Positions 4,307-47,698 of a stretch of DNA of 64,000 nucleotides are shown piece after piece. Every line of letters begins with the position of its first letter. The stretch's first letter is position 1. The notes below the pieces were generated by a model. That model saw only the letters and a list, made by a program, of their open reading frames with translations. It ran no database searches and was not told the origin of the DNA. The translations under genes were made by a program, and so were the position numbers. This stretch comes from an uncultured Nitrososphaerota archaeon (lineage in GTDB: Archaea > Thermoproteota > Nitrososphaeria > Nitrososphaerales > Gagatemarchaeaceae), in the NCBI GenBank assembly GCA_963718895.1, contig CAVRAG010000007.1, forward strand, positions 352,001 through 416,000, given 5' to 3'.

Positions 4307-4370
4307 TTTCAAGTTTACGCACGTTCTGCCGTATTTATAGCTGTTTACGATGGGCAAATGGGCAGTATTC

Positions 4371-6355: not shown

Positions 6356-6359
6356 GGTC

Positions 6360-7253: not shown

Positions 7254-8221
7254 TGTAGTCTGACCCTCGGATCAAGGTAGGCGTAGAAGAAGTCGGTGCC
7301 CAGGTTCGCGATCAGAGCGATGACGGTGATGAGCATCGTGATGCCTTGGACGGTCGTCAGGTCCAGCACGTTAGCAGCCTGGACGAACCTGAACCCCAGC
7401 CCAGGCCAGCTGAAGGTCGTCTCGAGCGCCGGTGCCCCTGCCAGCGCGAGAGCGAACGTCAGTCCGACTATGGTGACCACAGGTGTGATCGCGTTCCTCA
7501 GGGCGTGCCTGTACGTGATTGACCTGTCCGAGATTCCGCAGGCCTTCGCGGCGAGGATGTAGTCCTGCCTCAGGGTTTCCAGCATGTTCGCCCTTACAAT
7601 CCTGGCTATCACCGCGACCGAGACTATCGTCAGGACCGCCACGGGGAGAATCGCATGCGCGATGACGTCGAGGGTCGAGGACCCCCACCAATACGGCGGG
7701 TAGATTGAGTATGCGCCGTAAGAGGGAAGCCACCCCAGGTAGAGGGAGAAGACAATTATGAAGAGCTCCCCCAGCCAGAACGTTGGAAGGGATACGCCGA
7801 ATATGGCAGCGGTCGTGACGCCGTAATCGCTTTTCGAGTACTGGTGCTTGGCCGAGTAGACGCCCGCGGGAATCCCGATGGCGAGGCTCAGCCCCAGAGC
7901 AGAGAACTGCAGCTCGAGGGTCGTGGCGACCCAGGAGAAGACCGCCGTGTTTACGTTTCCGAACTGAGGCGAGTAACCGAGGTTCCCGGTCACGAAGTTC
8001 CCTAGCCAGAGGAAGTACCGGGCGTAGAGCGGCTTGTCGAGATTGTAGAACGCCCTGAGCGCGGCGAGCTGGGACGCTGAGAGGTTCTTGAACGAGAGCC
8101 TGATCAGGGAGAGGGGGTCACCGGCGGCGTTGGTAATCAGGAAGGTCACGATGGAGACCGCCAGGAATACTGGTATCATGAAAAGTATCCGGCGGATGAC
8201 GTAGACCCAGAGACCTGCCAT
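7250..8221 (-). CDS. oppB: Oligopeptide ABC transporter permease (OppB/DppB)
   Basis: YVIRRI, GNLGYS, QDYILAAKACG, HALRNA, ETTFSWPGLG, YAYLDPRVR. Confidence 0.92.
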   Translation of the reverse strand: MAGLWVYVIRRILFMIPVFLAVSIVTFLITNAAGDPLSLIRLSFKNLSASQLAALRAFYNLDKPLYARYFLWLGNFVTGNLGYSPQFGNVNTAVFSWVATTLELQFSALGLSLAIGIPAGVYSAKHQYSKSDYGVTTAAIFGVSLPTFWLGELFIIVFSLYLGWLPSYGAYSIYPPYWWGSSTLDVIAHAILPVAVLTIVSVAVIARIVRANMLETLRQDYILAAKACGISDRSITYRHALRNAITPVVTIVGLTFALALAGAPALETTFSWPGLGFRFVQAANVLDLTTVQGITMLITVIALIANLGTDFFYAYLDPRVRLH

Positions 8222-9377: not shown

Positions 9378-9402
9378 GGTGACCGATTCTCACGGGCGAC
9401 CA

Positions 9403-9960
9403 ATGCCTCAAACAAAGGCCATTGTGAGCATCGAGAACGTCGTCGCTTCTGCCTCGATCAACCAGACCGTCGACCTGAACCAGATCACCAAGAATTTCGT
9501 CGATGTGGAGTATCACCCCGACCAGTTCCCCGGCCTCGTCTTCAGGCTGAAGACGCCGAAGACGGCCACCCTGATATTCAGCTCGGGGAAGATGGTCTGC
9601 ACGGGCGCCAAGTCGGAGGAGCAGGCGAGGAAGGCGGTCCAGGAAGTGGTCCGACGCCTGAAGAAGGGGAGCATCCCGATAAAGAACGAGGCGGAGATTG
9701 AGATTCAGAACATCGTCGCGTCCGCCAACCTCGGAGGCAAGGTCCACCTGGAGGAGGCAGCGCGTCAGCTGCCAAAGTCGATGTACGAGCCGGAGCAGTT
9801 TCCGGGCCTGATCCACAGGATGGCAGACCCGAAGACGGTGATACTGCTCTTCGCGTCCGGGAAGCTGGTCTGCACCGGGGCGAAGCGCGAGAGCGAGGTC
9901 TACAGGGCCGTCAACAACCTGCACGTCCTCCTCGAAGAGAAAGAGCTGATGGTATATTAG
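9403..9960 (+). CDS. tbp: TATA-box-binding protein
   Basis: Two internal repeats: IENVVAS...YHPDQFPGLVFR...LIFSSGKMVCTGAK and IQNIVAS...YEPEQFPGLIHR...LLFASGKLVCTGAK. Confidence 0.98.
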   Translation: MPQTKAIVSIENVVASASINQTVDLNQITKNFVDVEYHPDQFPGLVFRLKTPKTATLIFSSGKMVCTGAKSEEQARKAVQEVVRRLKKGSIPIKNEAEIEIQNIVASANLGGKVHLEEAARQLPKSMYEPEQFPGLIHRMADPKTVILLFASGKLVCTGAKRESEVYRAVNNLHVLLEEKELMVY

Positions 9961-13566: not shown

Positions 13567-15221
13567 ATGGGCAGATTCGCTGACCTCGCCTCGACCCTCG
13601 AGAGCATCAGGGCGACGGCGGGCAAGAACGAGAAAGTCAGGATCCTCTCGGACTACCTCCGCGGGCTGGACGCCGACGACGCCGAGCGGGCCGCCCGCTT
13701 CTCGACTGGCAGAGCCTCGCAGAAGGGGAGCGCAGACGAGACGCAGATCGGCTACTCCACCATAACCGACGTGATCGAGGAGGTGACCGGGCTGTCCGCA
13801 AGGGAGTTGAGCCGCGTCTACGTGAAGCACGGGGACCTGGGGGAGGTCGCCGAGGAGATCATGACGAGGAGGAGTGAGACGACACTCTTCCAGGAGGAGC
13901 TCAGCCTGGCCGACGTCGCGGACTCCTTCGAGGCGATGACCCAGGCCAAAGGGAAGGGCTCGAACGCCCTGAAGAAGGGCTATCTCAAGGCGCTGCTCCT
14001 GAGGGCGAACGAGACGGAGGCAAAGTACATCGTCAAGATACTCACGAAGGAGATGCGGATAGGGCTCGTAGACGGGCTCGTGGAGGAGGCCGTGGCCAGG
14101 GCGTTCGAGCTCGACCGCGCCTCGGTAAGGGAGGCGCACCTTCTGCTGGGTGACATCGGGATGCTCGCGCGCCAGGCGCGCGCCGGGACCATCGGGGATG
14201 TGAGGCTGGAGCTGATGCGCCCGACGAACTTCATGCTGGCGGAGCCGATGGACAGTCCGGACGAGATCTCGTCCTACTTCGGAAAGGAGGTCTACGCGGA
14301 CTACAAGTACGACGGGGTGCGCGCCCAGCTCCACAAGAGGGGAGACGAGGTCAGGGTCTACTCGAGGAGGCTCGAAGAGATCACGGCGAGCTTCCCTGAG
14401 CTCGTGGAGGGCGCGAGGCGGATCGACCACGACCTGATGATCGACGGGGAGATCGTCCCGTTCAGGGATGGAAGACCGCTCTCCTTCCAGCTCCTCCAGC
14501 GCAGGCTCAGGAGGATAGAGGACTTCGAGGACGCCAGGAGCAGGGCGCCCGTGGTCTTCTTCTGCTTCGACATCCTCCTGCTCGACGGAGAGGAACTCTA
14601 CAGGAGGCCCCTCCGGGAGAGGAGGGAGTCCCTGGCGCGGGTCATCGAAGGGTCGCGCCTTCATCATGGCGGAGATGAAGCCGGTCACGGACGCGGGGCA
14701 GATCCAGAGGCTCTTCAGGAAGGCCCGCACCCTCGGGTACGAGGGCCTCGTCCTCAAGGACCCCGCGAGCCCGTACACACCCGGCAGGCGAGGGAAGTAC
14801 TGGGTGAAGCTGAAGGAGGAGCTGGACACCCTCGACGTGGTCATAGTGGGAGCAGAGCTCGGGCACGGCAAGCGGGCAGGGATAATCTCGGACTACACCT
14901 TCGCCATCAGGGACGGGCCGGACCTCAAGGTCATCGGGAAGGCGTACTCGGGACTTACGGACAAGGAGATAGCGGAGATGATGGTGAAGATCAAGAGACC
15001 TCACGACCGAGGACGACGGATACTTCAGGAGAGTGAGGCCCGAACTCGTGTTAGAGGTCGCTTTCGACAGCATCCAGAGGAGCGACAGGCACGACAGCGG
15101 ATTCGCCCTCAGGTTCCCCAGGATCAAGAGGATACGAGACGACAAGGACGCAGGGCAGATCGACACCATCGAGAAGGTCAGGGAGATCTACGCCTCTCAA
15201 AAGGTAACGTCGGAGCTGTAG
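13567..15221 (+). CDS. lig: ATP-dependent DNA ligase (two frameshifts, about 14655 and 15000)
   Basis: Motif I YKYDGVR, IDGE, FDILLLDG, EGLVLKD, WVKLK, LDVVIVG, motif VI LRFPRIKRIRDDK, spread over ORFs 13567..15036, 14666..15241 and 15033..15221. Confidence 0.93.
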
Positions 15222-16745
15222 AAACGGCGCAGCTCCTCTGAGAGGGTCTGGTAGTCTGCGACGCCTCTCCCGACCATAGTCTCCAAGAACCGGGTCCTCC
15301 TCTCCATCTCGGCTGAGATCTTCTTCGCAGAATAGCCGTACCCCGAGGCCCGCTTCTCGAGCTTCACCGACTGCTCCGCTGACCCGTCCCAGCTCCCGCC
15401 TCTGTAGCCGAAGAGGGCGTTCCATCCCCGTCCGGGTTCGACGACCTCCTGGATGTGCCTCAGCCCCGACGGGTCCCTCACCATGAAGACCACCGCGTCG
15501 ATGAGGTCCAGCGAAGAGGCCGTGACCGAGAGCGGGGGCTGGGTCAGCCTCGCGATGATCCCCTCGGAGTTCTGAGCGTGGAAGGTGGTCAGGCAGCCCG
15601 ACCCCGTCGCTGCGGCCTGGAAGAGGACCTGCACCTCCTCTCCCCTCGACTCGCCGAGGATGACAAAGTCGGGCCGCTCCCTCAGGCTGAGCTTCACCAG
15701 GTCGAACAGGGTGACGCTGGAGCCCGCCGACTGGGTCTGTTTCGTGTGGAGCGGCTTCCACCCGGACTGCGGCAGGCTGATCTCCCTGGTGTCCTCGATC
15801 GAGAGCACCTTCCAGTTGGGATTGATCACGGTGCCCAGGGCGTTGAGCAGCGTGGTCTTGCCGGACGCCGTGACGCCGGCGACCACCACGAAGCCCTTCA
15901 TCTCGATCAGCATCCACAGGTACGCCGCTAGCTTCGCGTCGAGCGTCCCAGCTCGAATCAGTTCTGAGATCGTGTAGGGAATCGTCCTGAGCTTGCGGAT
16001 GCTGAAGCTGCTCCCGAGGCTGGTGACCTCCTTCCCCCATGTCGCGGCGAGCCTGTAACCCTCGGGTAGGACGCAGTCGACTATGGGAGACGAGATCGAG
16101 AGGGAGCGGTTCGACCTGTGGACCAGCCTCGAGACCACGGCGTCGAGCTCCTCCTGCTGGGGGAAGGCCACGTTCGTCTCAAGCCAGCCATGGGAGTTGA
16201 ACTTGCGGTGCCAGATCTTCACCGGCCTGCCGGCGCCTTCGCACGAAATGTCCTCTATCTCGCCGTCGCGGATCAGCGGGTCGATCGTCGAGTAGCCGAG
16301 TATGTCTCTCATCAGGTAGTGCGTCGCCGCGCTTGAGGTCGTCGTCGGTGACACCAGAGTCCAGGTATCCTCCGCGCTTGAGCTCGGCGAAGAGGTAGCC
16401 TAGGGGGTCGACAGAGATGACGGGCGACGGGGCCAGCCAGGACGTGAGCGAATCGATTGCTCCCGCCACGGCCGCGCTCAGGTCGGGGGAGAGGTACGGC
16501 TCCTTAACCAGATAGAGGAACCTTCCGTCGAGCTCGTAGATGTACACGGTGTAGCTCGACCTGTAGGTGACGGCATCCCCTGCCCTCAGCTCGTAGCTGA
16601 CGAGATAGTTCTCTGCCATGATACCTCCTCGAGGAGGCTCGAAGGGTATCGTCTCGAGCGCCACCGCAGTCGTCCGGGGTCGGGGCCTCCTGAGGCTACG
16701 CCCGATCATAGACCTATAGCGTGAGATCGACCGTTCTAGTTCCAA
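15197..16745 (-). CDS. Type IV pilus/type II secretion assembly ATPase (TadA/FlaI family), frameshift about 16335
   Basis: N-terminal YLVKEPYL; IEDISCEG; Walker A GVTASGKTT; Asp box SIEDTRE; LRERPDFVILGESRGEE; TTFHA. Confidence 0.9.
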
Positions 16746-28769: not shown

Positions 28770-30720
28770 ATGCAGGTAAAAGGGAAGGGGATTCTCGAGG
28801 ACTACGCGAAGGTCGAGCGGGAGATTCTGCAATTCATCAGGAAGATCGTGGAAGACTCAGGTTCCAAAGGGGCGGTCATAGGGCTCAGCGGGGGCATAGA
28901 CAGCTCCGTCGTCGGGGCGCTGCTCGTGCGTGCGTTGGGCAAGGAGAAGGTGATAGGGATACTGATGCCGGCATCTCACACTCCGAAGCAAGACAACGAT
29001 GACGCGCGGATGACTCGCCAAGACATGGGGGGTCAGGACCTACGAGGTCGGCATAGATCCGATCTTCTCGGCATTCGAGAAGACTCTTCCCAAAGAAGGG
29101 GAGAACAGGATCGCCTATGCCAATGTCAAGGCGAGAATACGAATGATAATCAATTACTACGTTGCCAAATCCCACGGGATGCTCGTAGCGGGGACGGGTG
29201 ACAAGTCCGAAGATGAGATTGGGTTTTTCTGCTATGATGAGAAGACCAGGGTTGTAACAATCGATGGCCTGAAGGGTTTGAACCAGTTGAAAACAGGTGA
29301 TATCGTCTTCTCGCTTGATCTCGGGACGCAGATGATGGTCGAGTCGAAGGTCGATGGCGTCTTCAAGTTCCCTTATGACGGTCAGATGATTCACTTCGGG
29401 GGCCGCGGCGCCGACGTCATGGTTACGCCTAACCACCGCATGCTAATTCACACTAGCTCCTCAAAGTCCGACTCCAGACTGGTCTTTCGAGCAGCTGATG
29501 AGTGCCTGAAGTCGAGGGACATCAACACCCCAACACCATTGGGTTGGGCAGGAAACCACGAGGCCCCTTCGTCCATAAGGTTGGTCTTCAATCAGAGGCA
29601 CATCGAGAGAACGGAGGACCTGTCAATCGAAGATGTCTTCTATCTTCTCGGGCTCTTCATCGGGGACGGATGTGTAACGGCCGGAAAGGCGATCCTACCC
29701 GTCAAATCGGCCATGAGCCGACGGGAGTATACGAGCGCGCATCACGGCAAGGACGGCCGCTTCGTACAGATCGAAACGAGCAAGACAGACGTCCGCATGA
29801 AGGAGTATGCGACATTTGAAACGATATTCTCCCTCCCGAGCTACACCAAGGATGCGGCTAGGAGCCGCCTTATCGAGGTGCTAACAAAGTATAAGATTGG
29901 ATACTCGCTGACCAGAGATACTGTCCGCATCTCATCGAAAGGTATCTATGATTTCTTCATCCAGTGCGGAACCGGTGCTAGGAGCAAGCATATCCCACAC
30001 TGGATCCTGAGTTACTCATCTGCGTATCTCGTGCATCTCCTCCGCGGGCTGAAGGACAGCGACGGGTCGCATCCTGAGACCAAGAGTTACTATTACACAT
30101 CTTCTGAAGAGCTCAGGGACGACTTCGTCCATCTTTGCTTCAAGTTGGGGAGAAGGGCCAGCGTCACCTCGAGGGGCCCAACACGCCCCAGGATCAACGG
30201 CAAGACGATAATGACAGGTCCATCATTCACCATCAGCTACGCGAGTCACCAGCATTCGCAGCATACCCTCAAGAGTGGATTAGCGAAGATGGTCGACTAC
30301 AAGGGGGAAGTTTGGTGCCCCTCTGTTCCGCCCTGCGAGAATCTTCTGGTCGAGAGGAATGGCAAGTACGTCTTTTCAGGGAACACCAAGTTCGGAGACG
30401 GCGGAGTGGACTTCTTGCCCATAGCCCACCTCTACAAGACGCAGGTCAGGGAGCTGGGCGCGCACCTTGGGCTGCCCGAGCACATAGTGCACAAGCCGGC
30501 CTCTCCACAGCTCTGGCCAGGCCACAGGGCAGTGGACGAAATCCCTATCGAGTATGAGCGGCTGGACCATGTGTTGGCGGGGCTCTTCGACGAGAAGCTG
30601 GAGCCGAGGGAGGTCGCCAAGAGGACGGGAGTCGACATCAAGATAGTCCAGGATGTGGTCAAGAGGCACAGGGCTTCGGCCCACAAGCGCTCATATCCGC
30701 CGATGCTAGGCAGCTGGTAA
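28770..30720 (+). CDS. nadE: NH3-dependent NAD+ synthetase, intein-containing (N-extein frameshift about 29010)
   Basis: SGGIDSS, ANVKARIRM, GTGDKSE..IGFF / TKFGDGG, PIAHLYKTQV, KPASPQLWPG, SAHKR. Confidence 0.95.
29230..30384 (+). mobile_element. Intein (385 aa) with LAGLIDADG homing endonuclease inserted in nadE
   Basis: Starts CYDEKTRV (Cys1); block B VTPNHRM; LAGLIDADG motifs LLGLFIGDG and LRGLKDSDG; block F YKGEVWCPSV...NLLVERNG; ends SGN before Thr+1. Removal restores GFF-TKFGDGG. Visibly more AT-rich than its flanks. Confidence 0.96.
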
Positions 30721-33547: not shown

Positions 33548-34388
33548 CTAGTCGACCGAGTACTCTGGCTTGGCCTGCGCGCTGGGCTGGTGCTTGTGCC
33601 TGTACCGCACGCCCAGGGCAAGGGCCAGCACCGAGACAACCGCTCCGGCTCCTATCCCAATCGAGGCCGCCTGCTCCGTCGCCGAAGAGCTAGGGCCTGA
33701 GAGGGGGAGGGAGGTCGAGAGGAGCGTAAGAGCCAGAGTCACCGTTCCCGAGGGTGCGGCAGCCAGCTGCAGCGAGGGAATCCGCCTTCAAGGGACCCAA
33801 GGCCACCCGACATGTTGAGGCCGGGGATGACGAGACCCTGCCCGCTCAGCCCCTGGAGGGCTCCGAGACCCGACAGGCTCGGGATGGGGGCGCTGAACTT
33901 TACCGAGTAGATGAGCCCGGATGGGAACGTGGAGAGCGCGCCGCTTATCGTCTCGGTCGTCCCGTTGCCGTTGATCTTGGCTGTCAGGGCATAGCTTGTC
34001 AATTCGTAACCCTTGCCCTGGAACTGGATCGAGGTAGAACCGTTCTTGAGGATCGAGAGCGCAGACGCTATTCGAGCCCGACGTGTAGCTCAAGCTCTGG
34101 TTGGTGACCGACGGCAGCAGTGGTGACACTTCCGAGGACGAGTTTATCGACCGGGAGTAGCTGAAGCGTGGAGTTCCCAGAGACGACGCTCAGAACCAGC
34201 TGGTCGTACTTCGCGTTCGAGGTGGCCGAGACCGACTCGTTGACCGTGATGGCGTGCGTCGTCCCCATGTATGAGACCTGGACGCTGTAGGCCGCATAGC
34301 CCGGAGTCGCAGCACTCGCCGTGCCCACGGCCCCGAAGAGGAGCACCGCCAACGCAAGTGCGGGGAGGACAGCCTCTGTCCGTTTCAT
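33548..34388 (-). CDS. Secreted, C-terminally anchored Ser/Thr-rich protein (frameshifted)
   Basis: Signal peptide MKRTEAVLPALALAVLLFGAVGTASA; fragments 34068..34388, 33788..34129, 33739..34002 and 33548..33742 end in a TM helix plus basic tail; upstream of the ABC-2 pair. Confidence 0.7.
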
Positions 34389-34689
34389 AGAAAACCCGGA
34401 CATCGGCTTCGATAAAAGGCTTCCCGGAGTGGTTTTGGATGTAAGGAACTGCCTCAGCCGACTCATCCCAGTTTCCTACACGATTCCGACAGCCCGAGAC
34501 TTTCGGAACTCGCACCGGAAGGAACTGAAGGGAGGCTGAAACGGGGTTCTTCACCCTGAACGAGGAATGGCCTCCATAGATCGGACCATACTCTGAGTGC
34601 CCATCGGCAAGGGCATTTGTTTTTAATCGATACGAGAGAAACATGCCTTGAAGAGCTTAGCTAAAAGAGGGAACAATCATGGTCAGCGA

Positions 34690-35502
34690 GTGGGAGATAC
34701 TCAGGCGAAGGTCCTCAGCGAGAACCTCAAAGTTCACAAGATAGAGGCACCATACTACGAACAACTTCACCACGAGATATTCAATCGCATAGAGCAAGCG
34801 AGACTGAAACGAAGCTTAGCTAGGCACCTCGAAGAACCAAGAGGACTACGAGTCCTTGACTACGGCTGTGGAACGGGAAACTTAACGAGGGCGCTCGTAC
34901 ATATTGGGGCTATTGTGACTGCGGCAGACATTTCGCCCGAGATGATTGCCTTGACACAGGCAAACCTCAGCAAGGAAATACAAGCAGGGTTGGTACAGAC
35001 CCTCATTCTAGGCGCGGACCATTGGCTATTGGCAAGTTTGATTGTGTTGCAATGTATTCCGTCCTTCACCATCTTTATGACCCCGTTGGGGCTGTCAGTG
35101 ATCTCGCCACTCGCATTTCTCCCCAAGGGACAATTCTGATAGAGCACGAATTCAATCCGGGATTCTCTAATCTTGCCCACACACGCTTCTTCCACTTCTA
35201 CGAACTTAGTTGCTATCTTCTCAATAAACTGTGGGAGTTGGGTGTCAAAATGGCGCGAGGGGTCTCGACCCCAGAATTGAGGTACTCTTATGTGTGGTCT
35301 GATTATGGAGCACAAGAAGAGACACGAATTCCATGGGCGAACCTCGTACTCGCAATGGAGCGTCTGGGCTTCCAGATGGAAACAGACAGATACATGGTGT
35401 CTAAGAACTCGAATTCCGAATCCAATCTACATGATCTGCAGATGGTTTCTTGCTGACACGATGACAGTCATTTTTAGGCGAACCAACTACACGCGAGGTT
35501 AA
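34690..35502 (+). CDS. Class I SAM-dependent methyltransferase (frameshifted)
   Basis: VLDYGCGTG, ADISPEMI, FDCVAMYSVLHHL..P across ORFs 34648..35139 and 35022..35456. Confidence 0.82.
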
Positions 35503-35778
35503 GAGATGAAGGGTGGCTTCTAGGGTGTCTTCTGATTGACCTTCTGACCAAGTTATTGAGTACATTCTTTGGAAGGTAGCCGGGCGAAAACAATCTTGCT
35601 GATGATGTTGAAGACTCGATCAAGAACTCCCTATTCCCGTTCTCGCGGAGCACTAGGTTTCACCTGGCAAGCCCGATCTTTAAGCCCGAGCGTTTGGAGA
35701 GCATTCACAACTGTCCCAATCAAGGCACACTTTTTGATTGATTTAGATAGGACCGTTTCTGTCGGAAAGTTTTGGCGA

Positions 35779-36805
35779 ATGAAGCTAGCGTTCATCAGCA
35801 GTCAAGGTAGAGGAGGAGTCGCAGCAAGTGATTCCGCTCTGATTAGAGGCCTCACGAAGGAAAAAATTGATGTCCAGGTCCTCCCAGCTGGGAACGACCT
35901 GCTGACCAAGCTTCTGAGAGATGCCTCGTTTGTTCATTCCTTTCACGCGTTTGACAGGGTTCTGTATTCAGGTTCGACTCCGTGGATCAGTAACCTTGTC
36001 CCACGTGCCGTTAAGAGAGCGCTCTTCGTCCACGGCTTTGTACACGGCGAACTAGTGAATTCCTTCAAGCACGGGAAGGCATCGACTAGGGCCGGAAGCA
36101 TTGTCGATTTGGCCAGATGGCAGTTCTTCAAGTTGACTGACAATATCGAGTTCGTGGCGACACACAGCAAGTCAACGTATGAGATCCTGGGGATGTCGAC
36201 TCCCGTCTCCCAGTTCTCCAATTCGTCTTTGAGGAGGATTTGGTAGAAAGTGATGAGGGTGGCTGGGACGACAATCAACCAACGAGGGTTAGGATAGTGA
36301 CATACACGTCCTTGGTGGAATCACCCCGCCTCCTGAAATCAAATCAGTTGGAGGAAATAGCCGCGGGCCTCTGCAAGACGCGTCAACAGAGAGTTTGAAC
36401 TGGTGGTTGTGGGTCCTTCGAGATTGCGCGAATCCAGTCACATAAGGCGTTTGGATTTCATGAAGCGATTGGAGTTCTTGAGATTGCTTTCATCATCGGA
36501 CGTCCTTCTTGAATGCTGTACTGATGAGGAACTAGGGATTGGCAGTCTTGAAGAGGGCATTCAAGAACGTCCCAGTGGCAAAGATTATGAGACGATCCTG
36601 TCTTAGGGAGAAAAGACTACACTGACGACGATGTCATCGTCAGCACATCCATGCCCGAGTTTGTTGAGAGCTTAGCAACGTATGTCGAAGACATCAATCG
36701 ACAGAAAGAATATCGAGTGGATGGAGATTTCGTAACTTCCTTGCAACGAAGAGAACGTGGAATTCTGTCAAGGGGCAACTTCTTGAGGCCCTGTCGAGCA
36801 ACTAG
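35779..36805 (+). CDS. Divergent GT-B glycosyltransferase (frameshifted)
   Basis: MKLAFISSQGRGG, LFVHG, then LVVVGP, LLSSSDVLL...EELGIGSLE (E-x7-E-like). Confidence 0.65.
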
Positions 36806-37084
36806 GGAGGGGTCTACCATTTGCCACTTGGGTGATCGTCACCCCCACGATGGTTAGAATCATCCCTGTCGTAACTCGAAGGTGACTCGACAAGATATTA
36901 CGTCGGAAGCAACCCTGTCAGCGGCTTTTTCATATCCCCTAGTGCGCTCGATGTCGGCGCCTTCCCCTTCGGAAATAGCCTCACATCGCATCCGCGAGCT
37001 CCCGCGGGCCCTCTCCTTGAGCTCCCGAACGAAGAGTTTATGACCGTCCCGCACAACAAGGTTCTCGTTTCTGCTCCCCATATG

Positions 37085-38810
37085 GTTTAGCATGATCGAT
37101 CAGTAAGTCCAAGATAATGAGACCTTATAGTGTGAAGCTATTGGTCCAATCAGCCAGACTCATTGACGTCACTGTGAAGGGGAAGAGCCCGGCAGTCTCA
37201 TTCTGGGGTTGGACAAGCTGCTGAAAGTAGCCCGGGAAAGCCGAGAAAGGCGCAGAGCCGTTTCCCACGCGTACCTCCACGGTTGACCACATATCTGAGT
37301 AGAATTGACTCGCACTGATGTTGTCAACGGACTGAGATACTGGGAGCGGGGAGAGAAGACTCTTAGGTTCCTTAAATCTTGAACACCTGGGGTCAAAGTC
37401 GACCGATACGGGATTCCCAGCATATATGCAGGTGACCCATTCAGATTCGCCTGCATGAAGTTTCTCACTTCAACCGCATTCGTCCCGGTGGAGAGGTAGA
37501 AGGTGTCATCCGGAAGGAAATGGACCGGCGAGGTTGCGAACGCCCCCCAAGCGGGTACAGGGAAAATCATGAACACAACGAATAAGGCGAGACAAGACGA
37601 GACTCGTCTCCGACTCTTGGTTAGACGAGAGAAGACGAAGGGAGCCGCCAAGAAGAAGGCTGGTAGCGAGGTATTCGCTAGTTGGACTACCTCTCCCGAA
37701 ACCAGATATGAGAATGAGTGGTACCCAGGTTGCAGCGCATAGTAGTAGGATGTTCCGAGATAGGATATGAGAGCGACCGCAGAAGAGGAGCAAAAGCAAG
37801 GCCAGCCTGTCCCTCCCAAATAGCGCGCGCCTCAAGAGAAGTACTAATCCGACCGCCCCAATCACACCAGCAATTGGGCCCCAGCCACCTGCGATGCCTA
37901 CTAAAAAGAACGAGGCAGTCCATAGGATAGGGGATGAACCAAGTGCTCACAATCTTGGTTGTAGTACTGATAGTTGTAATGGTACTTGAGCTGACGTTAC
38001 CAAGAGTCGTGGTGATGGTCTGGGTGATGGTCGTGGTGATGGTCGACGGCGTGCTCGAGGCAAGGGGACCGACGGTCAAGGAGAGTGCTGAGTGGGGAAG
38101 GCTAAGAAGCACTCCAGTAGGCAATACAAAAGCGACGATTGAGAGGGTCAAGAGCAGCTTGAGTCTTGACCGGTGCATTGCGGCGTTATCGTCCCGCTTG
38201 AAGTAGGCCGCTAGGGCTATGATGGCGATGCCTCCAAGCGAATAGGCGATGTACGGCTCTCTTGAACCGGTTGATGCGCCGAAAGCTACTGCAGAAACGA
38301 ATGGGTAGATGAGGGTCCCTTTCCAGGTCTTCGATTGGTAGAACCTAATGAAGAAAGTAGATGCCCCACATTGCAGCAGCAAGGCCGACGGGTTCAGTCA
38401 AAAAGCGAGTTTGAATACGCAATGAAGGAAACAGCCATGAACGACGAAATCATCGCAAGGGCAGCGGTGACACCACCGAATCCCAGTCTGTGAAGAATGA
38501 GGTATATTGCGAAGAGTGTGAGGCTGGACCAGAAGAAACCATAGAAGGGAAGAAGTGTGGAGAATGAATCGACGCTGTTGATTCCAAAGGCCCTGAAGAT
38601 GACGATGTTGAAGCCGCCGAAGAACCACCGGTCGGTGTAAATCGCCCCTCCGAGGGCCTCGTTGTAATAGCGGAACGCATCGGAATCAAACAGGCCAGTG
38701 GTCCAGTATTCGTAAAACCTGAACGTGTAGAGTACGGAAAGGAGTCCTTGGGCCAAGAAGAGCGTCTTGGTCTCCAGAGAAAACGCTCGCAGTTTCACGT
38801 TTGAAACCAC
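37085..38810 (-). CDS. Multi-pass membrane protein, GT-C (ArnT/PMT-like) glycosyltransferase candidate; fragmented, 3' end approximate
   Basis: TM helix followed by loop DSDAFRY; later GSREPY; Thr-rich segment; ORFs 38394..38810, 37687..38382, 37506..37865 and 37169..37819. Confidence 0.55.
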
Positions 38811-38968
38811 GCAACGAATCGGGACCTGTGCACCACGGACATCCTAGCCTTCCTGTGAGGACCGGGTAGAGCGCATTCACCATATAGACATTCGAGGGAA
38901 ATCGGCCTGTTCTTAATCATCCCTCGAGTGGAATTCCGACAAGTGAGGTGTGATTCAATCCATTAACT

Positions 38969-40031
38969 CTATTGACCTCCAGAGGACGAAATCCTCATTT
39001 CCGACCTTCGACTACTTTGACGGATATCTTCGATAAGCTTCACGAGAATAGGAGATATGCAGCCACCTCCTTGTGAGCACCGAGCGGCTGGAACACAAGC
39101 TTTCACGCCTTGCCGAGCAACAGGCTCCTCACACTCGATGAAGATGCTTATGATCTTGGCCCCCTCCCCAGCTATTCCCTCAGGAATGACCCGAGTTCGA
39201 ATTAAGGAACGGAAGAAGAAACAAGGCAGCATAAAGATCGATTTCCACCCATAGAACCTAATCAGAAACAGCGAATGGTTACGCAACTCGTAGTAGCCGC
39301 TTCGGACCTTCGATTTTCTCGTGCCCCCCTCGGTAGCTCTATCGTGCACCGCAACGGCCCATAGATTGGTAGAATATCATGTATCCTGCTCTGCGAACTC
39401 TATAGTAGAAGTCGGTTTCCTCTCGGTAGCTTGTTCCACGATAATATCTCCAATCGTATCCGCCGACTCTTCGGAAGACTTCTGAGGGTATCTAGGGAAC
39501 AAGAGTGCAAAGCGGGAACTTGGACCAACCCTGCCTTTTCGCTGCTGAAGTTCGAGTAAATAATCCCAGTGAATGGACTTGTTTCAACAATACGATCATC
39601 CGATTTGATTCGGACTCTTGCGGTAGGCCTCTATCAGTCTGGGCGCCACCGCCCCTACACGGTGTCCCTCCTTTGCAAGACAGTCGAAACCATCTATGAG
39701 ATTCAATAGACAGTCTGGTTCAAGAATCAAATCATCTTCGATAAAGAAGACGAAGTCCCCCTTCGCGAGCGAAACAGCGATGTTTCTGGACATGGGAAGC
39801 CCAACATTCGAATTATTCCGGTGGTACCTAATTCTTGGAATCGTTTTCCTCAGTTCGTCGACTATAATCGGCGTCTCGTCTGTACTTCCGTCGTCGATGA
39901 TTGAGTATTTCATAGTCGTCGTAGCTCTGCGAAATGACACTGTTGAGACACTTTCGTATATGGCTACTCCGATTGAACGTCGGCAAGGCGATTGTTACTC
40001 TAATGGGCCTAGTGGACATCGGCTTCGTCAT
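38969..40031 (-). CDS. Glycosyltransferase family 2 (frameshifted)
   Basis: IALPTFNRS, IIDDGSTD, SRNIAV...GDFVFFIEDD, YREETDF. Confidence 0.85.
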
Positions 40032-41041
40032 GTTGCAATGCCCTGCAGCCTCTTGTAAGCCATGAGATGGGCCGCGGCTGAACGACTCCAAGAATAACTG
40101 TCCCAGAACGTCGAATCACCGACGACAGTGTCACACCTCACGGATCTCGACATTAATCTGCCGATTGTCTTGGATAGCTCTTCGGGCGTACGACTTCTGT
40201 CCATCACGACACCCTTGTCACGAAGCTTAGCGATATCTGCGACATCACTTGAAACGACGGGCAAGCCGCAAGAAAGCGCTTCCAAGACAACGAGAGAGAA
40301 GCCCTCCACCTTGGAAACCTGAACAAGCACATCCGAAGCATTGTACACCCTCACCAAATCTTCCCTTTCGAGGTACCCCATGAGGCGCAGGTCAACGTTC
40401 AATTCCTTCGCTAGCTTGCTGATTCTGGTTTCGCTCGGTCCGCGACCGACAATCAGGGAGCGTTACATCGCGCAGTCTGGACACGGCTGTGACAAGTAGT
40501 TCATGGTTCTTGTGGGGAACGAGTCTGCCTACACTCAGAATTGTGAACTTGTTCAGACCGAGCCTGTCCCGAGCTTCCTTACGAAAACTCGAATCCTCTT
40601 TGAACAAGGACCTATCGATACCATCGAGGAGATGACCAGACTCTCTGGTTCTGCATTCCCAAGCCATGCGATGACCTGTCAGATGGGAGAATGATGAGGC
40701 TCGCCTGCGAACACGCAATCTTCTCGATTGGGTAAAATAATGAATCTCTCGGCTTGGGCGGTGCTCGGATACGAAATGGTGGAACGTCTCTACCTTAAGT
40801 CGGTGAATTGCGAGCATGCCACTTGCCTCATTGGAATGAACGATGTCGTAGGCCGAATAGTTACGAAACAGATTCCGGAGTATGAATAAGACAGGTGCCG
40901 ATGATCGGAATGTGCAAGTTCGTTGTGAAGACATCGACGACCGCACCTTCTTGTCGCAGACCTTCGACATAGGTCAAGAGAGTAGACCCCATATCCGTAC
41001 GAAGAATCACCATACCCATAGGTAATGTAAGCCACTCTCAA
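40028..41041 (-). CDS. Glycosyltransferase family 4 (frameshifted)
   Basis: YDIVHSN, SVGRLVPHKN, YNASDVLV...EGFSLVVLEALSCGLPVV. Confidence 0.85.
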
Positions 41042-41410
41042 GGGTTGACACCTGTGCTGAAGTGCATACTTGCCGTCAAGGCAATCTGAGATTTCGATGT
41101 GATGGGAGTTAAGGCTTCTGAGTCACGTCTGCTGTGCGTTCGTCTTTCATCAAATGAATAGCAACGACCTCGCAGTCTCACCCTGCTCCCAACACGGCTC
41201 CAGAACGTACTAGGAGCTCTTGGCCGCGCTTTCAACACGCCGGTCTTTTCCTGGACGACTTACACAACCCTCACCATGTTCTGTGCAGTGGTCCAATATT
41301 TCAGACCAATTAAATAACATCTTCATCGGGAACGAAATCCCCCCGCGCACCTAGCATCTAGTTCAATCAATAAGATAGTGAAAAATATCCCTCAACAGAG
41401 TTCTGGGGAG

Positions 41411-42657
41411 CTAATCATTCGATTTTGGTAGATTAGAGGAATCCAAGCACGCGCTAATCACTTCCTTGAGACAAGAATCCATCTTCTGCAAAGAGAACGC
41501 CCTCTCGAACAGTTTGAGAGCATCCAAACCCATGACATCTCTTGAGTTCATCTTCTTGCAAGAATAAAGTTGTGAGCGGTGTACATCAGCTCCTGGTGAC
41601 AAAACTACGCCGGCGTCATTCTCTGCGAATGAAATCTCCAGAAAGAAACCCATTGGCTAGGCAAATAATCGGCTTGCCATTCCTCAAATACTCGATCAGC
41701 TTAATCGGTAACGAGGCGTCAGGATAAGGACAATTCTTCATTGGTAGCAGGAATAAATCTGCCTGTGAGAGGAATGTGTCGAGTGCCGAAGCACTAAGTC
41801 GTCTCGAATGACAAGGTCACATTCGGCAGATTCAGGTCTTGATATTAGCGTCATTATCTCCCCACGTAATTCACCGTCCCATGCAGGACAACATGATGTC
41901 CGGACTTTCCCGCAAGATGTCGGCTGCGCTCAATAGGGTTTCGAAGTCGTAATTCTTTCCTAGGTTGCCTGAATACAGGGCAACAACGCCGGACCGGCTT
42001 CCCTTCGGAGGGTTGTCAGTCAAGCGTTGGGTCTTTTTTACCAAGCATTAGGAACAATGAAAACCCTCTTTAGATTCAATCTGTGTGGTTCGACAGCATT
42101 CTTGTCATGGAAGATGTCAAGGTTGTAACATAATCACTTTGTCGATACGCCACGTTGCAAACGGCATCTCCTAGAGTGTATCTCGTCCCAGATTGTACAT
42201 TCCCTGTGTTGACCAAGGCCTCCGGCCAAATGTCAGTGACGTCAGAGACGACCCCTCGCGCCAGTAAGACTCCTAACTAATACGGCTGGGAATGTCGAAA
42301 AGACCTTCATACTGAACGCCCAAACCACATCGAGATCTTAGTGCGAACAAGGACGCAAAGCAAGCACTAATCACGCGAACGAGGCGTAAAGCAGAATCCT
42401 GTTGATGCTGCCGTTGTGCGGCAAGGGGAGCACGATATTTTTCCGGATGACTTCTGTCGGTCCGTCGCTTTCCCTTGCGAAGAAGCGCAGTTTACGGCCT
42501 GATATCTTGTATCCTTTTGGATAGTGAGGGAACGAGGTTATCACGGTCACCCGGTGTGATAGACCGACTGTCAGCTCTTTGACCTGGTCTGAAGCCTCAG
42601 AACATCTCCATTCATGTCTGGGGGATAGTACTGGGAAATTATCAAGATTCTTGACAA
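41411..42657 (-). CDS. Glycosyltransferase family 4, WbuB-like (heavily frameshifted)
   Basis: Manual translation: SRILIISQYYPPD, TVITSFPHYPKG, DVTDIWPE, YSGNLG, LPIKLIEYLRNGKPII. Confidence 0.78.
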
Positions 42658-42760
42658 GTTCTCGTTCTCGGGGGATGCTGGTCAGTCTTGTTCGAACCAA
42701 GACTCCAAAGGGGACAGATGGGCCGGCCCGAGTTTTGAGGAGAGTCTTGAGGCAACGCCA

Positions 42761-43822
42761 TTACCTTTCTGGACCCGAACTTATCTCCTTGTGCCACGTT
42801 ATTGATTTTCTAAGGCCCTCTTCTAGGTCCACCTTGGGTTGCCAACCGAGTAGCCGCTTGGCCCTGCGGATGTCCAATGCTCGGCTCGAATGGACCCTCG
42901 GGGTTGTTTCGAGATTGTAGTAGATATTTTTCAAGAAATACCCGGAAATTCTGAGGTATTGAGTCGACCACTTGCCTTATCGTATATCTCTTGTCCCAAC
43001 CAGAGATTCACAGGTGTACCATCATCTATGATTTCACATGCGAGTATGGATTTCCTCGGCAATATCATCGACGTATGTGAATCCCCTCTCTTCATTGCCG
43101 CTTCCCCCAGACCTCGAATGGATCTTGTTTCTTGAGTGCTTTTTCGATTAACGCAGCTATCGCATGGCTCGAATCGAATTCGCCTGGCCCGTAGACGGTA
43201 AGATAGCGACACGCAGAGGTCTTGAACCCGTGTTCCTTATTGAACACTATCAACTGCATCTCACCCATCAGCTTAGCGAATCCGTAGAGGTTGTCACTGC
43301 TTGCCCATCCTTCGCCAGTGGCCAGAATGTCATCCTCCTTCAAGAGACGACCTGGAATGTTGAGTGAAGGAGCATACACACAAGCACTGGAAGCATAGTG
43401 AAATCGGTCAATACCGGCAACGTAGGAACCGCTTATCACATTGTGATCTATTGCGAGCATCTCGGAGCACTCCGCTTGATGGATGTCAACAAACTCCCTG
43501 CCTCCGAACACAGCACTAAGGTGGAAGACTGTGCGTTCTTCTTTGCAATCTTTTGGAACTTTGCCTTGTCAACCGCAAGATCGAGGGTAACTAGATTGGG
43601 ATGATCGAAGCCGTGCTTTGCGTAAACCTCGTTCAGCGAATTCACTTTCCTCTTCGCCATTTCAATGTTTTTTTCGGTACCAAGAACCTTGTCTATCACA
43701 GTAACCTCAGCCCCCCTAGACAGGAGTTTGTCCACCACACATCTCCCAATGAATCCCGCGCCACCCGTAACAATGATTTTCCTATCCTTCCAGCGGGTCC
43801 GTTGAGATCTTGGCAGGGGCAC
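42761..43822 (-). CDS. NAD-dependent nucleotide-sugar epimerase/dehydratase (frameshifted)
   Basis: VTGGAGFIG, YASSACVY, YGFAK (YxxxK), VYGPG, VWG, LGWQP. Confidence 0.88.
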
Positions 43823-44718
43823 TAGTCACCCTCCCGGCTTTCGCGTACGACACTTATCAGAACCCACAGGATTACGGCTATGGCGACTAGGATTAGACCG
43901 ACGAGTGAGGTTGCCATCGCTATGAGTGCAACATTTGTGATTATGGTCTTCTCAGCGACAAAGATGCTTAAGGTCCAGTACCAGAAGACGACGGCGATGA
44001 GCAAAGATACAAAACCAGGAATTCCGTAGAACATCAGGGGATGGCGGATTGAAAGGTGTTTCACAAGAGAAAGAAGCACATCTAGCCCTTGGTACACCGG
44101 GTTACGCTTCGACGAGCCTTGTATATAGGATACAGTAATCGGAACTTCAATCGCCTTAAGCCCTAAATCGTGGGCCTTGGATAGTATCTCTGTATGGCCC
44201 ATCCCCATTTCGCTGATTGCCAGAGATTTGATAGCTCTCTTATTGTACGCGGAAACCTGATTGGGCGTCAGTTAGACCGAAGTACGCCATAGCGCCGGAC
44301 AGCTTGGTTATTGCTTGCGCACCAACCTTTCTATGGTTCGGCATGTTAGTAGTTCCCTCAAGGAATCTCGAACCGACGACTATGTCTGCTTCCCCGTTGA
44401 GAAGCGGTGTGACAACCTTTTCCACGTCGGCAGGGTCATGCTGCCCATCCCCGTCCAAAGTGACCATGATGTCGACATCCTCCAGTTTAGCACGCGAAAA
44501 AGCGTTGCCAATGCGGCACCGTAGCCCTTGTTCGTTGAATGAGAGATTACCTCAGCTCCTAGGCTCTTGGCGATATCTCTCGTCAGGTCTGTTGACCCGT
44601 CATCGCACACGATTACGCTGTCGACATATCTGTTAGCAAGAACAAGCACTTTTGCAATGTTCTTCTCTTCGTTGTAGGCAGGAATGGCCGCCACCACTCG
44701 TAATTTACTCTCCTGCAT
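43822..44718 (-). CDS. GT2 polyprenol-phosphate glycosyltransferase (DPM1-like) with C-terminal TM helices (frameshifted)
   Basis: IPAYNEE, DDGSTD, NKGYGAA, LDGDGQHD, VVGSRF, DAQSGFR. Confidence 0.88.
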
Positions 44719-44721
44719 TTG

Positions 44722-45325
44722 CTACCCATCCCTGAAGTGTGAGTCGGACCGCATCCCAAGCAGAATGTTCGTTGGAACCCAAATTTCACATTCTCTTCCA
44801 GGAAGGCAACGCCTAGTCTGGATGTCTACCGAGGTCTGATACGGCCGATTGGCCTTGGTCCCCTCCTCAGCCAAAGCGTGAGGTAAAACGTTGACAATCT
44901 CAATGATGCAGGACATCAACGCACAATCGAAGTCCATCTGGAGAGTCCCCGCGACTTTGCTTTCATGCATAAAGTTCTTCTGATCGTCCAACGCGCATAG
45001 GTCAAGAGGGATAGCCTCAGCGAGTGTTGTGACGGATTTGGAATTGATTCTGTCAATGTCTTCTCTCACCTGCTTGGATCAATCCAAAGAGACGGCTCGG
45101 ATGAACTCCCGCGGCCTGAGCGGGACAAAGAGAAGACTGCTTTGTGGCCTTCGTTTTGAGATTCACGCTCGAGAAACCGAAGGTTCGTCCGGGATTGATT
45201 TCACGCATCGCGAAGAGGTTTGTAATCAATGGTGAGATGTCTGAAATTTGGGCTACTTGAAGAACGGTCTGCATACTTAACGTTGGATTCTTGACAGTCT
45301 TATACCTAGTATGTTCCTCTGTCAT
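44722..45325 (-). CDS. Unassigned fragmented ORF(s)
   Basis: ORFs 45053..45325 and 44722..45069 are co-oriented with the operon and end 3 nt before the next start; no motif recognised. Confidence 0.3.
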
Positions 45326-45603
45326 GAATTGGATATTCTTCGGTTAAGGTTGTCTCCCGAAACTGCCAGGTTTCCGACCTGTAGATTACTGAGTACAATC
45401 ACATCGAACCAGTCGCAACGAGTCTGCACTCTCGAGGATTAATTGTGAACCTTCCTATTCGTTGAGCAAGGCTTCATGTCAGTTAGGCAGACGAACTGCA
45501 TCTCCACAGATTCACGAGGTCTCAAAGAGAAGACCTTGCGCGACTCGGGTAAGGAGGGAGCATCTAGGCGTAGTCGAAATGAAGGGAGTCGCAGCCACGC
45601 TTC

Positions 45604-47397
45604 CTAGGTCAGCTCATATACTCGAACGTCCGGATTAGAATAGACCAGTGTCAAATTGGAACTGGATAAAGACGGAAAGTTGTTCCAAGGGAAATCTTGC
45701 GGGATGTCTGGGACTGCCGCCGTTACTACATTAGTGACTATTATGTATGGTATCTTCTGCCGATTGGCGTAAGCTATCGCTTGGGCGGGGTCACTCAAGT
45801 AAGCATATGTCGTCTCGCGATTGAAGAATAGAGAGGTATATGTGAAACGAAAATCTGAGACCGCAAGGTACGTCGAGTTCTCGGGAGTGTGTGATTGAAG
45901 CCAAAACATGGAAGCGTTTACTGCGAGCTGAGCTTGAGAAGAGACTTGTGTGCTGGCAGTCGCGTCCGAAACCAGCTGCACACCCCATGAACCCGCAACC
46001 AGGGGCACCAGCACTAGCACCAATACGAATCCGGCTTTCCAATATGTGGTCGGTGAGGAGCTTCTCCCCTTCCTAGTTCGAATCTTGGGAGAAGCGAAAA
46101 GAGCCCAAAACCCGCCATTAGAGTGAAGGGCACGAGCGCTTCAAAGGAAAACCTCCATGCGCCCACGCCAAAAGGAGAAACGATCAGCAAGGAGACGAAC
46201 CAAATCACGGGAACAAACATGAGAGACGACCCCATGGTGAATGCTCTCCATAGATAGACAAAGAAGAGGAGGAGCATTATGGCGAATCCTATGTCGTACG
46301 TCGTCTCAACAGCCATGTAACTGAGAATCGGAAAGGCCGACAAGAGACCCGAAATCCAGGTACTTCCAATCACATTGCCTCCGCCGGTGGAGGCAAGTTC
46401 GAGGGAGTTGACGATAGTCGGATATGCGAGCACGGCGATTCCGGCTGGGACAACTACCAGAAGAGAGGCCAGTAGGAGACGCTTCGGGAAGGCTTTGGCA
46501 ACGAAGTATTCGATCAACGGAAGGGTCAATACGGCTGGCAGGATTGTAATCGTGGAATAGTGAGAGAAGTATGCCATGGCTGTAGCCAGGCAGAGAACAA
46601 CCCACGCTCCCCGAGACCTGATGTTCAATCCAACTTCGATTAACGCTGTGAGAAGAAAAAGAGAGGCCAGAATACCGAAGAAATTGGCATAGAGCCCTGC
46701 ATTGAAGACGCTGCCGAACCAGACAGTTCCGGATAGAGAGTAGATCAGCGCTGCAATGATAGCCGCGGCATTGCTCGAAAACAGTTTCCGTGCGATCAGG
46801 TAGAAGAGGAGAGGAGAGAGCGCCACCAGCAGAGCCATTGTCCAGCGGACGGTTACCAAGGGATTTCCACCGACGAGAAGCAGAGCCGCCGCGAGCTGAA
46901 AGTGGACCCCGTAGTATAGCACGCCGAGCGGGATTGATGTCGAAGTTCCGGAGACTAGACCTTGGGCATACTGCACGTGAGCGGCGTAGTCAGGGCTTTG
47001 ATACGCAGGAAAGATCGGGTACTTCTGGAAGTACAGCGCAATAAGTAGGCTCTGTACGAGAATGATCGAAAGCATCGCCAGTTCAAGTCTTCTGGGCCTT
47101 GTCCACCAAGTCACTTTTCCATGAAGAAAAGAAGCGAGCAAGAGAGCAGCAAGCCCAAAGGCGACCGTGCCATAAATCGTCAGAAGGATCGAGACCCCGA
47201 AGAGCTGGAGAAAGTCCAGACGTGCGTATCATCACGACAATCGTGTCGACAGCGAGTCCGATGCCGAGAGAATATGCAATTCGAGTGGTGAGAGAATCTT
47301 GCTGCCCCCACACTTCCATTAGCTCTCCTAGGCCTATTCCAGGTGCAAAGATGAAGGCGAGATAGACCAAGAACCCCAGAGAGCTCAAGTGCAACAT
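45604..47397 (-). CDS. Multi-pass membrane protein, GT-C superfamily candidate (frameshifted)
   Basis: Loop motif SPDYAAH...YYGVHF, about 13 TM segments, soluble tail FWLQSHTP...PYIIV...LVYSNPDVRVYE as in STT3/ArnT-like proteins. Confidence 0.65.
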
Positions 47398-47698
47398 GAA
47401 GACGTGCGAACGAATATGAATGTTGGGTTTCAGTATTGTCACGCTGGACAACCTCCTAGACTGCACTGAATCTCCTTCGCCCTCATGACTCTGGCGAGCT
47501 CTTTGAGGCGGGAGTGAGCTGTTCAGTAAGAGGAGCCGGTTGTGCATCCGGTGCCGCGGAAGATTGCTAAGACATTCCCTAGGGTCGATCACGGCGTCGG
47601 GTGTCTCTGAAATCCGATTGGAGATGCCTATCCGCTACTCGTGGCAGCTTCAACGCGCGAGATCCTGGTGATTAACACCATATCAGTGGTGCGTCGAT

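Follow-up and report, generated by a model that had tools for sequence, protein, structure and literature searches.

What kind of element interrupts the nadE gene in this archaeal DNA, and is it new? We analyzed a stretch of 64,000 nucleotides, called the window here, from an uncultured soil archaeon of the Nitrososphaerota (contig CAVRAG010000007.1, positions 352,001 to 416,000 of the forward strand). Within it, nadE encodes an NH3-dependent NAD+ synthetase and, with its insertion, occupies positions 28770-30720 of the forward strand. A preliminary description had read the insertion as a full-length homing-endonuclease intein at a conserved motif of NadE, which our analyses uphold, and had placed it at a rare or new site, which they do not. 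The explanation that we favor, and hold to be very probable, is that of an ordinary intein of class 1, carrying a LAGLIDADG homing endonuclease within it, in the nadE of a Gagatemarchaeum-like Nitrososphaerales archaeon. It would be one copy of a widespread NadE allele.

The intein has 385 codons (29230-30384, forward strand, as are all parts of nadE below) and consists of a Hint splicing domain in which a LAGLIDADG homing endonuclease is nested. Its 1155 nt are free of stop codons and lie in frame, preceded by ...DEIGFF, whose last base is 29229, and followed by TKFGDGG from 30385 on, so that it splits GFF/TKFGDG (the slash marks the insertion point) exactly where the preliminary description had placed it. 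It begins with TGC for Cys1 (29230-29232) and ends with GGG-AAC for Gly384-Asn385 (30379-30384), followed by ACC for the +1 residue, Thr (30385-30387). Block A (CYDEKTRVVTIDG; 29230-29268) supplies Cys1, the N-terminal nucleophile. Block B (DVMVTPNHRML; 29413-29445) has Thr66 at B:7, His69 at B:10 and Met71 at B:12. The two LAGLIDADG motifs follow. Motif 1 (YLLGLFIGDG; 29641-29670) carries the catalytic Asp146 and corresponds to helix 133-146 of a predicted structure. Motif 2 (LLRGLKDSDG; 30037-30066) carries the catalytic Asp278, corresponds to helix 264-278 and is reached by the Pfam LAGLIDADG_3 match (residues 269-315). Block F (GEVWCPSVPPCENLLVERNG; GEVWC363PSVPPCENLLVERNG; 30304-30363) has Cys363 (30316-30318) at F:4, a register set by relatives reading VWCLEVEDNHNF. 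Block G (KYVFSGN) with Thr+1 (30364-30387) places Ser383 at G:5, Gly384 at G:6 and Asn385 at G:7. Cys1, the TxxH of block B, both LAGLIDADG motifs and the Gly-Asn before Thr+1, all named in the preliminary description, are thus present.

We counted residue conservation over 115 aligned NadE inteins. Cys1, His69 and Asn385 occur in 115/115 and Thr66 in 114/115. The residues Trp362, Cys363 and Pro364 are each invariant (115/115), as is Gly384 at G:6. Position 71 (B:12) was tabulated as Met in 99, Leu in 10 and Ile in 4 of the 115, and is never Trp. Position 383 (G:5) is Cys in 74 and Ser in 41. The +1 residue is Thr in the window and Thr or Ser in the NadE homologues. The catalytic Asp is kept in 103/115 at position 146 and in 108/115 at position 278; the window intein has both. 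Two cysteines lie near the C-terminal junction: the invariant Cys363 and Cys369, which is peculiar to the window sequence. Cys369 (30334-30336) sits in block F, six residues past Cys363, where other NadE inteins mostly have Tyr, Phe or His.

Pfam detected LAGLIDADG_3 inside the insert (31 bits against a cut-off of 22.5). We also modeled the intein with AlphaFold2 on a 42-row alignment (mean predicted local distance difference test score 91.6, predicted template modeling score 0.86). The top PDB matches of this model in Foldseek are all endonuclease-bearing inteins, namely TliVMA 7qsu (E 7.4e-15), PhoVMA 7qst, PI-PfuI 1dq3, PI-PkoII 2cw7 and PI-SceI 1vde. At about 1e-4 came the free-standing LAGLIDADG enzyme I-DmoI (template modeling (TM) score about 0.6 on the target), mini-inteins and Hedgehog. 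The I-DmoI match and the secondary structure of the model both show the alpha-beta-beta-alpha-beta-beta-alpha core of the LAGLIDADG fold. The Hint_2 profile itself gave a weak score, and we accept the Hint fold despite it because the predicted structure matches inteins. On sequence and predicted structure together, we regard the insertion as a complete intein with a homing endonuclease that looks intact. The GC content of the intein is below that of the exteins (0.535 versus 0.580), as had been noticed before, and so is its GC content at third codon positions (GC3; 0.686 versus 0.761). The 2-kb windows flanking the nadE region have a GC content of about 0.60-0.65.

The host gene is recognizable on both sides of the intein. 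NadE, here of the single-domain type, belongs to the PP-loop enzymes and uses ATP. The N-extein opens with 81 codons (28770-29012) that contain the PP-loop SGGIDS (residues 40-45 of this first piece), align with homologues up to ...DDARM and match Pfam NAD_synthase (E 7e-20) and the NCBIfam families PRK13980 and nadE. The remaining 72 codons of the N-extein (LAKTWG...DEIGFF; 29014-29229) share the frame of the intein. The C-extein (TKFGDGGVDFLPIAHLYKTQV...; 30385-30720) has 111 codons and a stop, and covers positions 139-242 of the NAD_synthase profile. From 29014 to 30717 the same profile matches in two stretches (E 4e-44). It is covered over positions 3-66 and 139-242, and its middle part falls in the second nadE piece, so both the SGGxDS PP-loop and the full NAD_synthase domain are represented. 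NCBIfam names the flanks NAD+ synthase (PRK13980, TIGR00552). The two nadE pieces, scored separately, gave 84.4 and 181.8 bits for PRK13980, whose cut-off of 255 is that of the whole protein, and 65.2 and 134.5 bits for TIGR00552 (cut-off 63.65).

The best PDB match of the precursor profile is the NadE of P. horikoshii (2e18, E 1.7e-59). The match has two parts, which abut at precisely residues 140 and 141 of 2e18 (GYF/TKWGDG), the insertion point. For B. subtilis NadE (1kqp, 1nsy and further entries of the same sequence), the N-terminal match stops at residue 168. Because the 2e18 match breaks exactly there, we conclude that the intein splits the TKxGDG motif, which is near-invariant in a 12-sequence NadE alignment. 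We take this motif, from the B. subtilis NadE structures, to line the active site. A literature search on the roles of B. subtilis NadE Thr169, Lys170 and Asp173, which lie beside the insertion site, found nothing.

How would this intein splice? In the available text of PMC2807308, PMC5222942 and PMC4031507, inteins of class 1 start with Cys, Ser or Thr. This N-terminal nucleophile is missing from class 3 inteins, which, as described in the available text of PMC2807308 and PMC5222942, carry Trp at B:12, Cys at F:4 and Thr at G:5. The accessible part of PMC4031507 ranks Asp as the commonest F:4 residue, Cys as the second and Trp as the third. It also records that inteins without the G:6 His exist and splice, the penultimate His being usual but not obligatory. 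The window intein is an in-frame insertion absent from orthologues, with Cys1, Thr at B:7, His at B:10, a terminal Asn followed by Thr+1, and a Hint fold. Since Cys1, Thr B:7, His B:10, Asn G:7 and Thr+1 fit class 1, we assign it to that class, with a non-standard set of assisting residues, and not to class 3.

In the mechanism that we propose, the precursor would be translated through the intein. Cys1 would form a thioester at the GFF/C junction, aided by Thr66 and His69, and the N-extein would be handed to the hydroxyl of Thr+1. Cyclization of Asn385 would then free the intein, and an O-to-N shift would restore GFF-TKFGDG. The insertion point lies mid-fold, within a near-invariant motif, so that only the spliced protein is expected to be active as NadE, and the precursor is predicted to be inactive. 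That splicing would gate NAD+ synthesis, as the preliminary description had proposed, is a reasonable reading of the insertion point. At the level of DNA, we expect intein-free nadE to be cleaved by the endonuclease around GGGTTCTTC followed by ACNAAG, and the intein would be copied in by repair.

We next ask how common the element is. A search with a 568-residue piece of the precursor retrieved 237 proteins at E ≤ 0.001 (candidates of 312-994 residues), 120 of them listed. The C-terminal junction xGN/[TS]KxGDG is present in 119 of the 120 listed NadE homologues. As many as 114 also fit the N-terminal pattern G[YF][FY]/CYD, and four of the six exceptions are N-terminally truncated fragments. 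The named hosts are Nitrososphaerales/Nitrososphaerota, Bathyarchaeota, Archaeoglobus sp. and Chloroflexi (Anaerolineae, Thermoflexales). All sequences of the 12-sequence alignment, from archaeal and bacterial hosts, have the insertion at the identical site.

The accessible part of the survey by Novikova et al. 2016 (PMC4760082) finds inteins concentrated in replication, repair and nucleotide-metabolism proteins. COG category L accounts for 66.9% and F for 8.3% of archaeal intein hosts there, and ATP binding and ATPase activity are the dominant Gene Ontology terms. This agrees with the premise of the preliminary description about the usual hosts of inteins. Its further statement that NadE is not a standard host must be withdrawn: supplement file 2 of the survey has a column NadE_COG0171_NAD_synthase with one intein in Archaeoglobus profundus, among six Archaeoglobi. 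The available portion of the main text does not mention NadE (PMC4760082). A full-text literature search for intein with NAD synthetase or synthase returned nothing relevant, and among the texts accessible to it NadE was named as a host only in that supplementary table. Novelty had been claimed on the understanding that NadE inteins were not yet catalogued. It fails because 119 of the 120 listed homologues share the junction and the survey, in its accessible part, lists NadE (PMC4760082).

The A. profundus intein has the same host protein family as the window intein. The accessible table gives neither its site nor its sequence (PMC4760082), and the site is presumably the same, judging from the Archaeoglobus sp. 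NadE P0085 (634 aa). That protein has an intein at the identical site (GYF/C...GN/TKYGDG), and the two inteins align along their whole length. They are about 42% identical, the window host being a member of Nitrososphaerales. We therefore assign the window intein, by its sequence, to an already catalogued NadE intein allele that is common in metagenomic data. Inteins in NadE are neither new nor rare, which corrects the earlier impression. In protein sets of metagenomic scale, many metabolic enzymes contain inteins, which surveys of cultured organisms have barely sampled.

Relatives of the intein itself were sought by an exhaustive search with its 385 residues, which retrieved 5960 proteins at E ≤ 0.001; of these, 1987 reach ≤ 1e-10 and 128 reach ≤ 1e-30. 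We scanned 26 of the 150 listed matches for host domains with Pfam. NAD-dependent sugar epimerases/dehydratases were the most frequent hosts scanned (9/26), followed by NadE (3/26), C-methyltransferases (2/26) and family 1 glycosyltransferases (GT1; 2/26). A MetE-like protein, NrdD, a phage portal protein and an AAA_24 protein accounted for one each, and the other six were giant proteins with several inteins or had no host domain that Pfam recognized. RfbB (COG1088) is also on the survey's list of intein hosts, in the part available (PMC4760082). The nearest inteins outside NadE lie in SDR nucleotide-sugar epimerases/dehydratases, C-methyltransferases, GT1 proteins, NrdD and phage portal proteins (E 1e-52 to 1e-29, 28-41% identity). 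Because host proteins and insertion sites differ, these are different intein alleles.

Active-site residues are shared well beyond NadE. A WC...GN[STC] pattern, with Trp-Cys at F:3-F:4, occurs in 117 of 138 related proteins outside the NadE set (P0124-P0261); a strict regular expression for blocks F and G had matched 21/138. Cys1 is present in 174/174 related N-termini. The related C-termini all end in Asn (165/165), preceded by Gly in 164/165, and the +1 residue is Ser in 89, Thr in 64 and Cys in 12. The window intein belongs with these sequences to a very large clade, spread over metabolic hosts, that shares Cys1, Cys F:4, Gly G:6 and mostly Ser or Thr at +1; we found no biochemical characterization of it.

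Has the intein moved? A scan of GTDB species genomes yielded five nadE loci. The intein is present in L001 (Nitrososphaerales metagenome-assembled genome, MAG), L002 (Ca. Gagatemarchaeum stordalenia) and L003 (Nitrosopumilales MAG), and absent from L004 (Thaumarchaeota MAG) and L005 (Nitrososphaerales MAG). This split of three against two says nothing about frequency, because the peptide patterns of the scan derive mostly from the intein. Intein-free alleles, which the preliminary description had proposed as a check, are thus available. Both have an intact nadE of about 260 codons, joined precisely where GGGTTCTTC meets AC(A/C)AAG (GFF/TK).

The neighbors of nadE in the window (flippase, family 4 glycosyltransferase, nadE, a further glycosyltransferase, ATP-binding cassette (ABC) type 2 permease and ABC ATPase) are common to L001, L002 and L005, except that the further glycosyltransferase is unmatched in L001. 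None of them was matched in L004. Because L001, L002 and L005 share flanking genes, the intein is polymorphic at one orthologous locus. L002 (intein present; 2785-4707) and L005 (intein absent; 2782-3552) are syntenic Gagatemarchaeum-like MAGs whose exteins are 92.2% identical.

Identities of inteins and exteins do not always run together. The exteins of the window are closer to L002 (84.3%) than to L001 (79.5%) and its intein is closer to L001 (80.8%) than to L002 (70.9%), figures for which the N-extein of the window was joined without base 29012 instead of 29013, changing one residue. Over 6328 pairs from 113 sequences, intein and extein identities correlate with r = 0.66. Discordant pairs, given as extein and intein identity, include P0039/P0117 (82.6% and 38.1%), P0042/P0048 (35.0% and 66.9%) and the window with P0009 (83.7% and 52.2%). 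The GC3 of the intein is below that of the exteins in 4/4 intein-bearing loci. The gap is widest in L002 (0.556 versus 0.871), which suggests a recent arrival of the intein there. Between the window and L001, the one pair unsaturated at synonymous sites (comparisons with L002 were saturated), the ratio of nonsynonymous to synonymous substitution rates (dN/dS) is 0.197 for the endonuclease domain, 0.213 for Hint-N and 0.092 for Hint-C. With a dN/dS of about 0.2, we take the endonuclease domain to be under purifying selection. Taken together, these data give indirect support to movement of the intein from one nadE allele to another, with an endonuclease that selection has maintained and that is presumably still active. 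Of the recent, mobile intein at a rare site that the preliminary description had pictured, recent gain or loss and the signs of horizontal movement (empty alleles, discordance) stand, and rarity does not. L002 and L005 form a natural pair in which to test whether an archaeal intein homes into a gene outside replication.

The preliminary description also took the reading frame to be unbroken. That is correct from 29014 on. Upstream, a single extra base that it had overlooked (A at 29013, forward strand; seen by DNA alignment and three-frame translation) shifts the nadE frame by +1. The window reads GATGACTCGCC (ATG-A-CTC) where L001, L002, L004 and L005 read GATG-CTCGCC or an equivalent, 4/4 without the base. 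The first 81 codons, ending in ...DDARM, are out of frame with everything from 29014 onward, and nadE is not one uninterrupted frame. Programmed frameshifting was considered and set aside, CGG-ATG-A-CTC having no slippery heptamer.

Several observations weigh against the picture of an ordinary, mobile class 1 intein in a working nadE. Hint_2 reached only 20.8 bits against a cut-off of 28.4, and Intein_splicing had no match. The His at G:6 and the Asp at F:4 that are expected of class 1 are replaced by Gly384 and Cys363, and with a penultimate Gly and Cys at F:4 the details of catalysis may differ from textbook class 1. The intein-biased scan, the single unsaturated dN/dS pair and the choice of the base dropped from the joined N-extein belong here as well. 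So does the extra base, which lies outside any homopolymer run and might be a genuine inactivating mutation. In that event this nadE copy would be a recently inactivated pseudogene and the intein an intact passenger, no longer part of a working enzyme. The four relatives lack the base, and the public protein set holds only a 525-residue downstream open reading frame (ORF) from the contig (P0001), without the PP-loop, as recorded by the gene callers. No second NAD_synthase was found among the 132 window ORFs of at least 120 aa (136 ORFs less four overlapping nadE), so redundancy argues neither way. We give this account a minority share of belief and find an assembly error rather more likely, because two other genes of the window, those of the DNA ligase and an epimerase, are likewise divided between frames and nadE is otherwise free of lesions. 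The base is the sole lesion in about 1.95 kb, with no other in the rest of nadE or the intein and with every conserved NadE and intein residue downstream intact. At least two other conserved genes of the same 64 kb are broken alike, which points to indel errors in assembly, and cells can normally not do without NAD+ synthetase. Users of the annotation should read the frameshift at 29013, like the split DNA ligase, as a warning that the assembly contains such errors. The intein could also be a fixed vertical resident whose endonuclease no longer homes, presence and absence reflecting rare precise loss. Inteins at the same site span whole phyla, the catalytic Asp has been lost in 12/115 homologues (motif 1) and 7/115 (motif 2), and intein and extein identities do correlate overall. 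We nonetheless find a fixed resident unlikely. Exteins of 82.6% identity with inteins of 38.1%, and the reverse at 35.0% and 66.9%, fit poorly with vertical descent, as does a window intein nearer to L001 with exteins nearer to L002. The low GC3 of the L002 intein beside an intein-free sister of 92% extein identity, the two catalytic Asp residues of the window intein and its endonuclease dN/dS of 0.2 also favor mobility.

The invariant Cys363 raises two further alternatives, which concern splicing itself. In a class 3-like route, Cys363 at F:4 and not Cys1 would attack the N-terminal junction, giving a branched intermediate at block F before transfer to Thr+1. Class 3 is resembled in the Cys at F:4, in the Thr or Ser at +1 and in the distance from F:4 to G:7, which is 22 residues here and 20-21 in those class 3 inteins for which the available text of PMC5222942 gives numbering; this distance also supports the F:4 register. 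Yet Cys1 is invariant in the 115 NadE inteins and the 174 related N-termini, block B keeps the TxxH of class 1, B:12 holds Met, Leu or Ile (113/115) with no case of Trp, and G:5 has Ser or Cys in place of Thr. With three of the five class 3 signature features missing, we consider this route very improbable and retain class 1. Under class 1, splicing might still be conditional. A disulfide between Cys363 and Cys1, or another oxidation, would hold NadE as an inactive precursor and tie NAD+ synthesis to the redox state. Such a disulfide is conceivable given the precedent of the class 3 intein Msm DnaBi1, whose F:4 Cys is central between the junctions and whose disulfide blocks splicing under oxidative stress, as described in the available text of PMC6195587. 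Disulfides of active-site Cys residues make splicing oxidation-sensitive, according to the accessible part of PMC4031507. Both Cys1 and Cys363 are invariant in the NadE inteins, and Cys1 and the WC...GN pattern (117/138) extend to the related proteins. However, an invariant Cys at F:4 could simply take the coordinating role of the usual Asp, and Cys369, the other Cys to which the preliminary description had pointed, is not conserved. At the date of the review PMC4031507, according to its available text, conditional splicing had not been linked to any physiologically relevant role. We judge conditional splicing of this kind improbable, although less so than the class 3-like route, and equally so the broader reading in which the F:4 Cys would act clade-wide as a built-in redox switch and hold back NAD+ synthesis post-translationally under oxidizing conditions. 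If true, it would place the synthesis of NAD+, the central redox cofactor, under redox control. The clade-wide pairing of Cys F:4 with Gly G:6 marks a distinct variant of the class 1 active site, one that bears on whether an F:4 Cys can sense redox state outside class 3.

The rest of the window holds further observations. An ATP-dependent DNA ligase is split between frames on the forward strand (13567-15033 and 14666-15238), with the shift near 14655. Of the Pfam DNA_ligase_A_M profile, the first ORF, reading ...ERRESLARVIEGSR, covers positions 2-147, and the second, reading FIMAEMKPVTDAG...EGLVLKD, covers 156-204. On the reverse strand, an NAD-dependent epimerase is split between frames (43451-43822 and 43095-43511). 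It lies in a low-GC island at about 34000-47500 (about 0.50 versus about 0.62 elsewhere), among polysaccharide and glycosylation genes. The island is filled with short ORFs that overlap on the same strand, among them the split epimerase, a partial GT1 gene (40028-40402) and a partial methyltransferase gene (34648-35139). These glycan genes may have been acquired horizontally as an island that is either degraded or poorly assembled; no tRNA that could mark an integration site for it was found in the window. A complete oligopeptide/dipeptide ABC transporter operon (1619-8221, reverse strand) encodes a 946-aa family 5 solute-binding protein, two ATPases and two permeases, and a TATA-binding protein (TBP) gene lies at 9379-9957. 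These are ordinary context and confirm an archaeal chromosome.

Compared with known systems, the window intein shares the Hint horseshoe and the nested two-motif LAGLIDADG domain with TliVMA and PhoVMA (7qsu, 7qst, 7qss), PI-PfuI, PI-PkoII and PI-SceI. The Foldseek matches to these solved endonuclease-bearing inteins range from E 7e-15 to 3e-11, with TM-scores of 0.48-0.57 on the query, whereas sequence identity is only 11-16%. Like the solved endonuclease-bearing class 1 inteins, it has Cys1, the TxxH of block B and the terminal Asn. It differs from them in a penultimate Gly instead of His, a Cys instead of Asp at F:4, and a host that is a cofactor-synthesis enzyme. The class 3 inteins MP-Be DnaB and Msm DnaBi1 resemble it, as far as their published descriptions were available, in Cys at F:4, Ser or Thr at +1 and a similar F:4 to G:7 spacing. 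It departs from the class 3 inteins of these descriptions at three positions, with Cys1 where they lack an N-terminal nucleophile, Met where they have Trp at B:12, and Ser where they have Thr at G:5.

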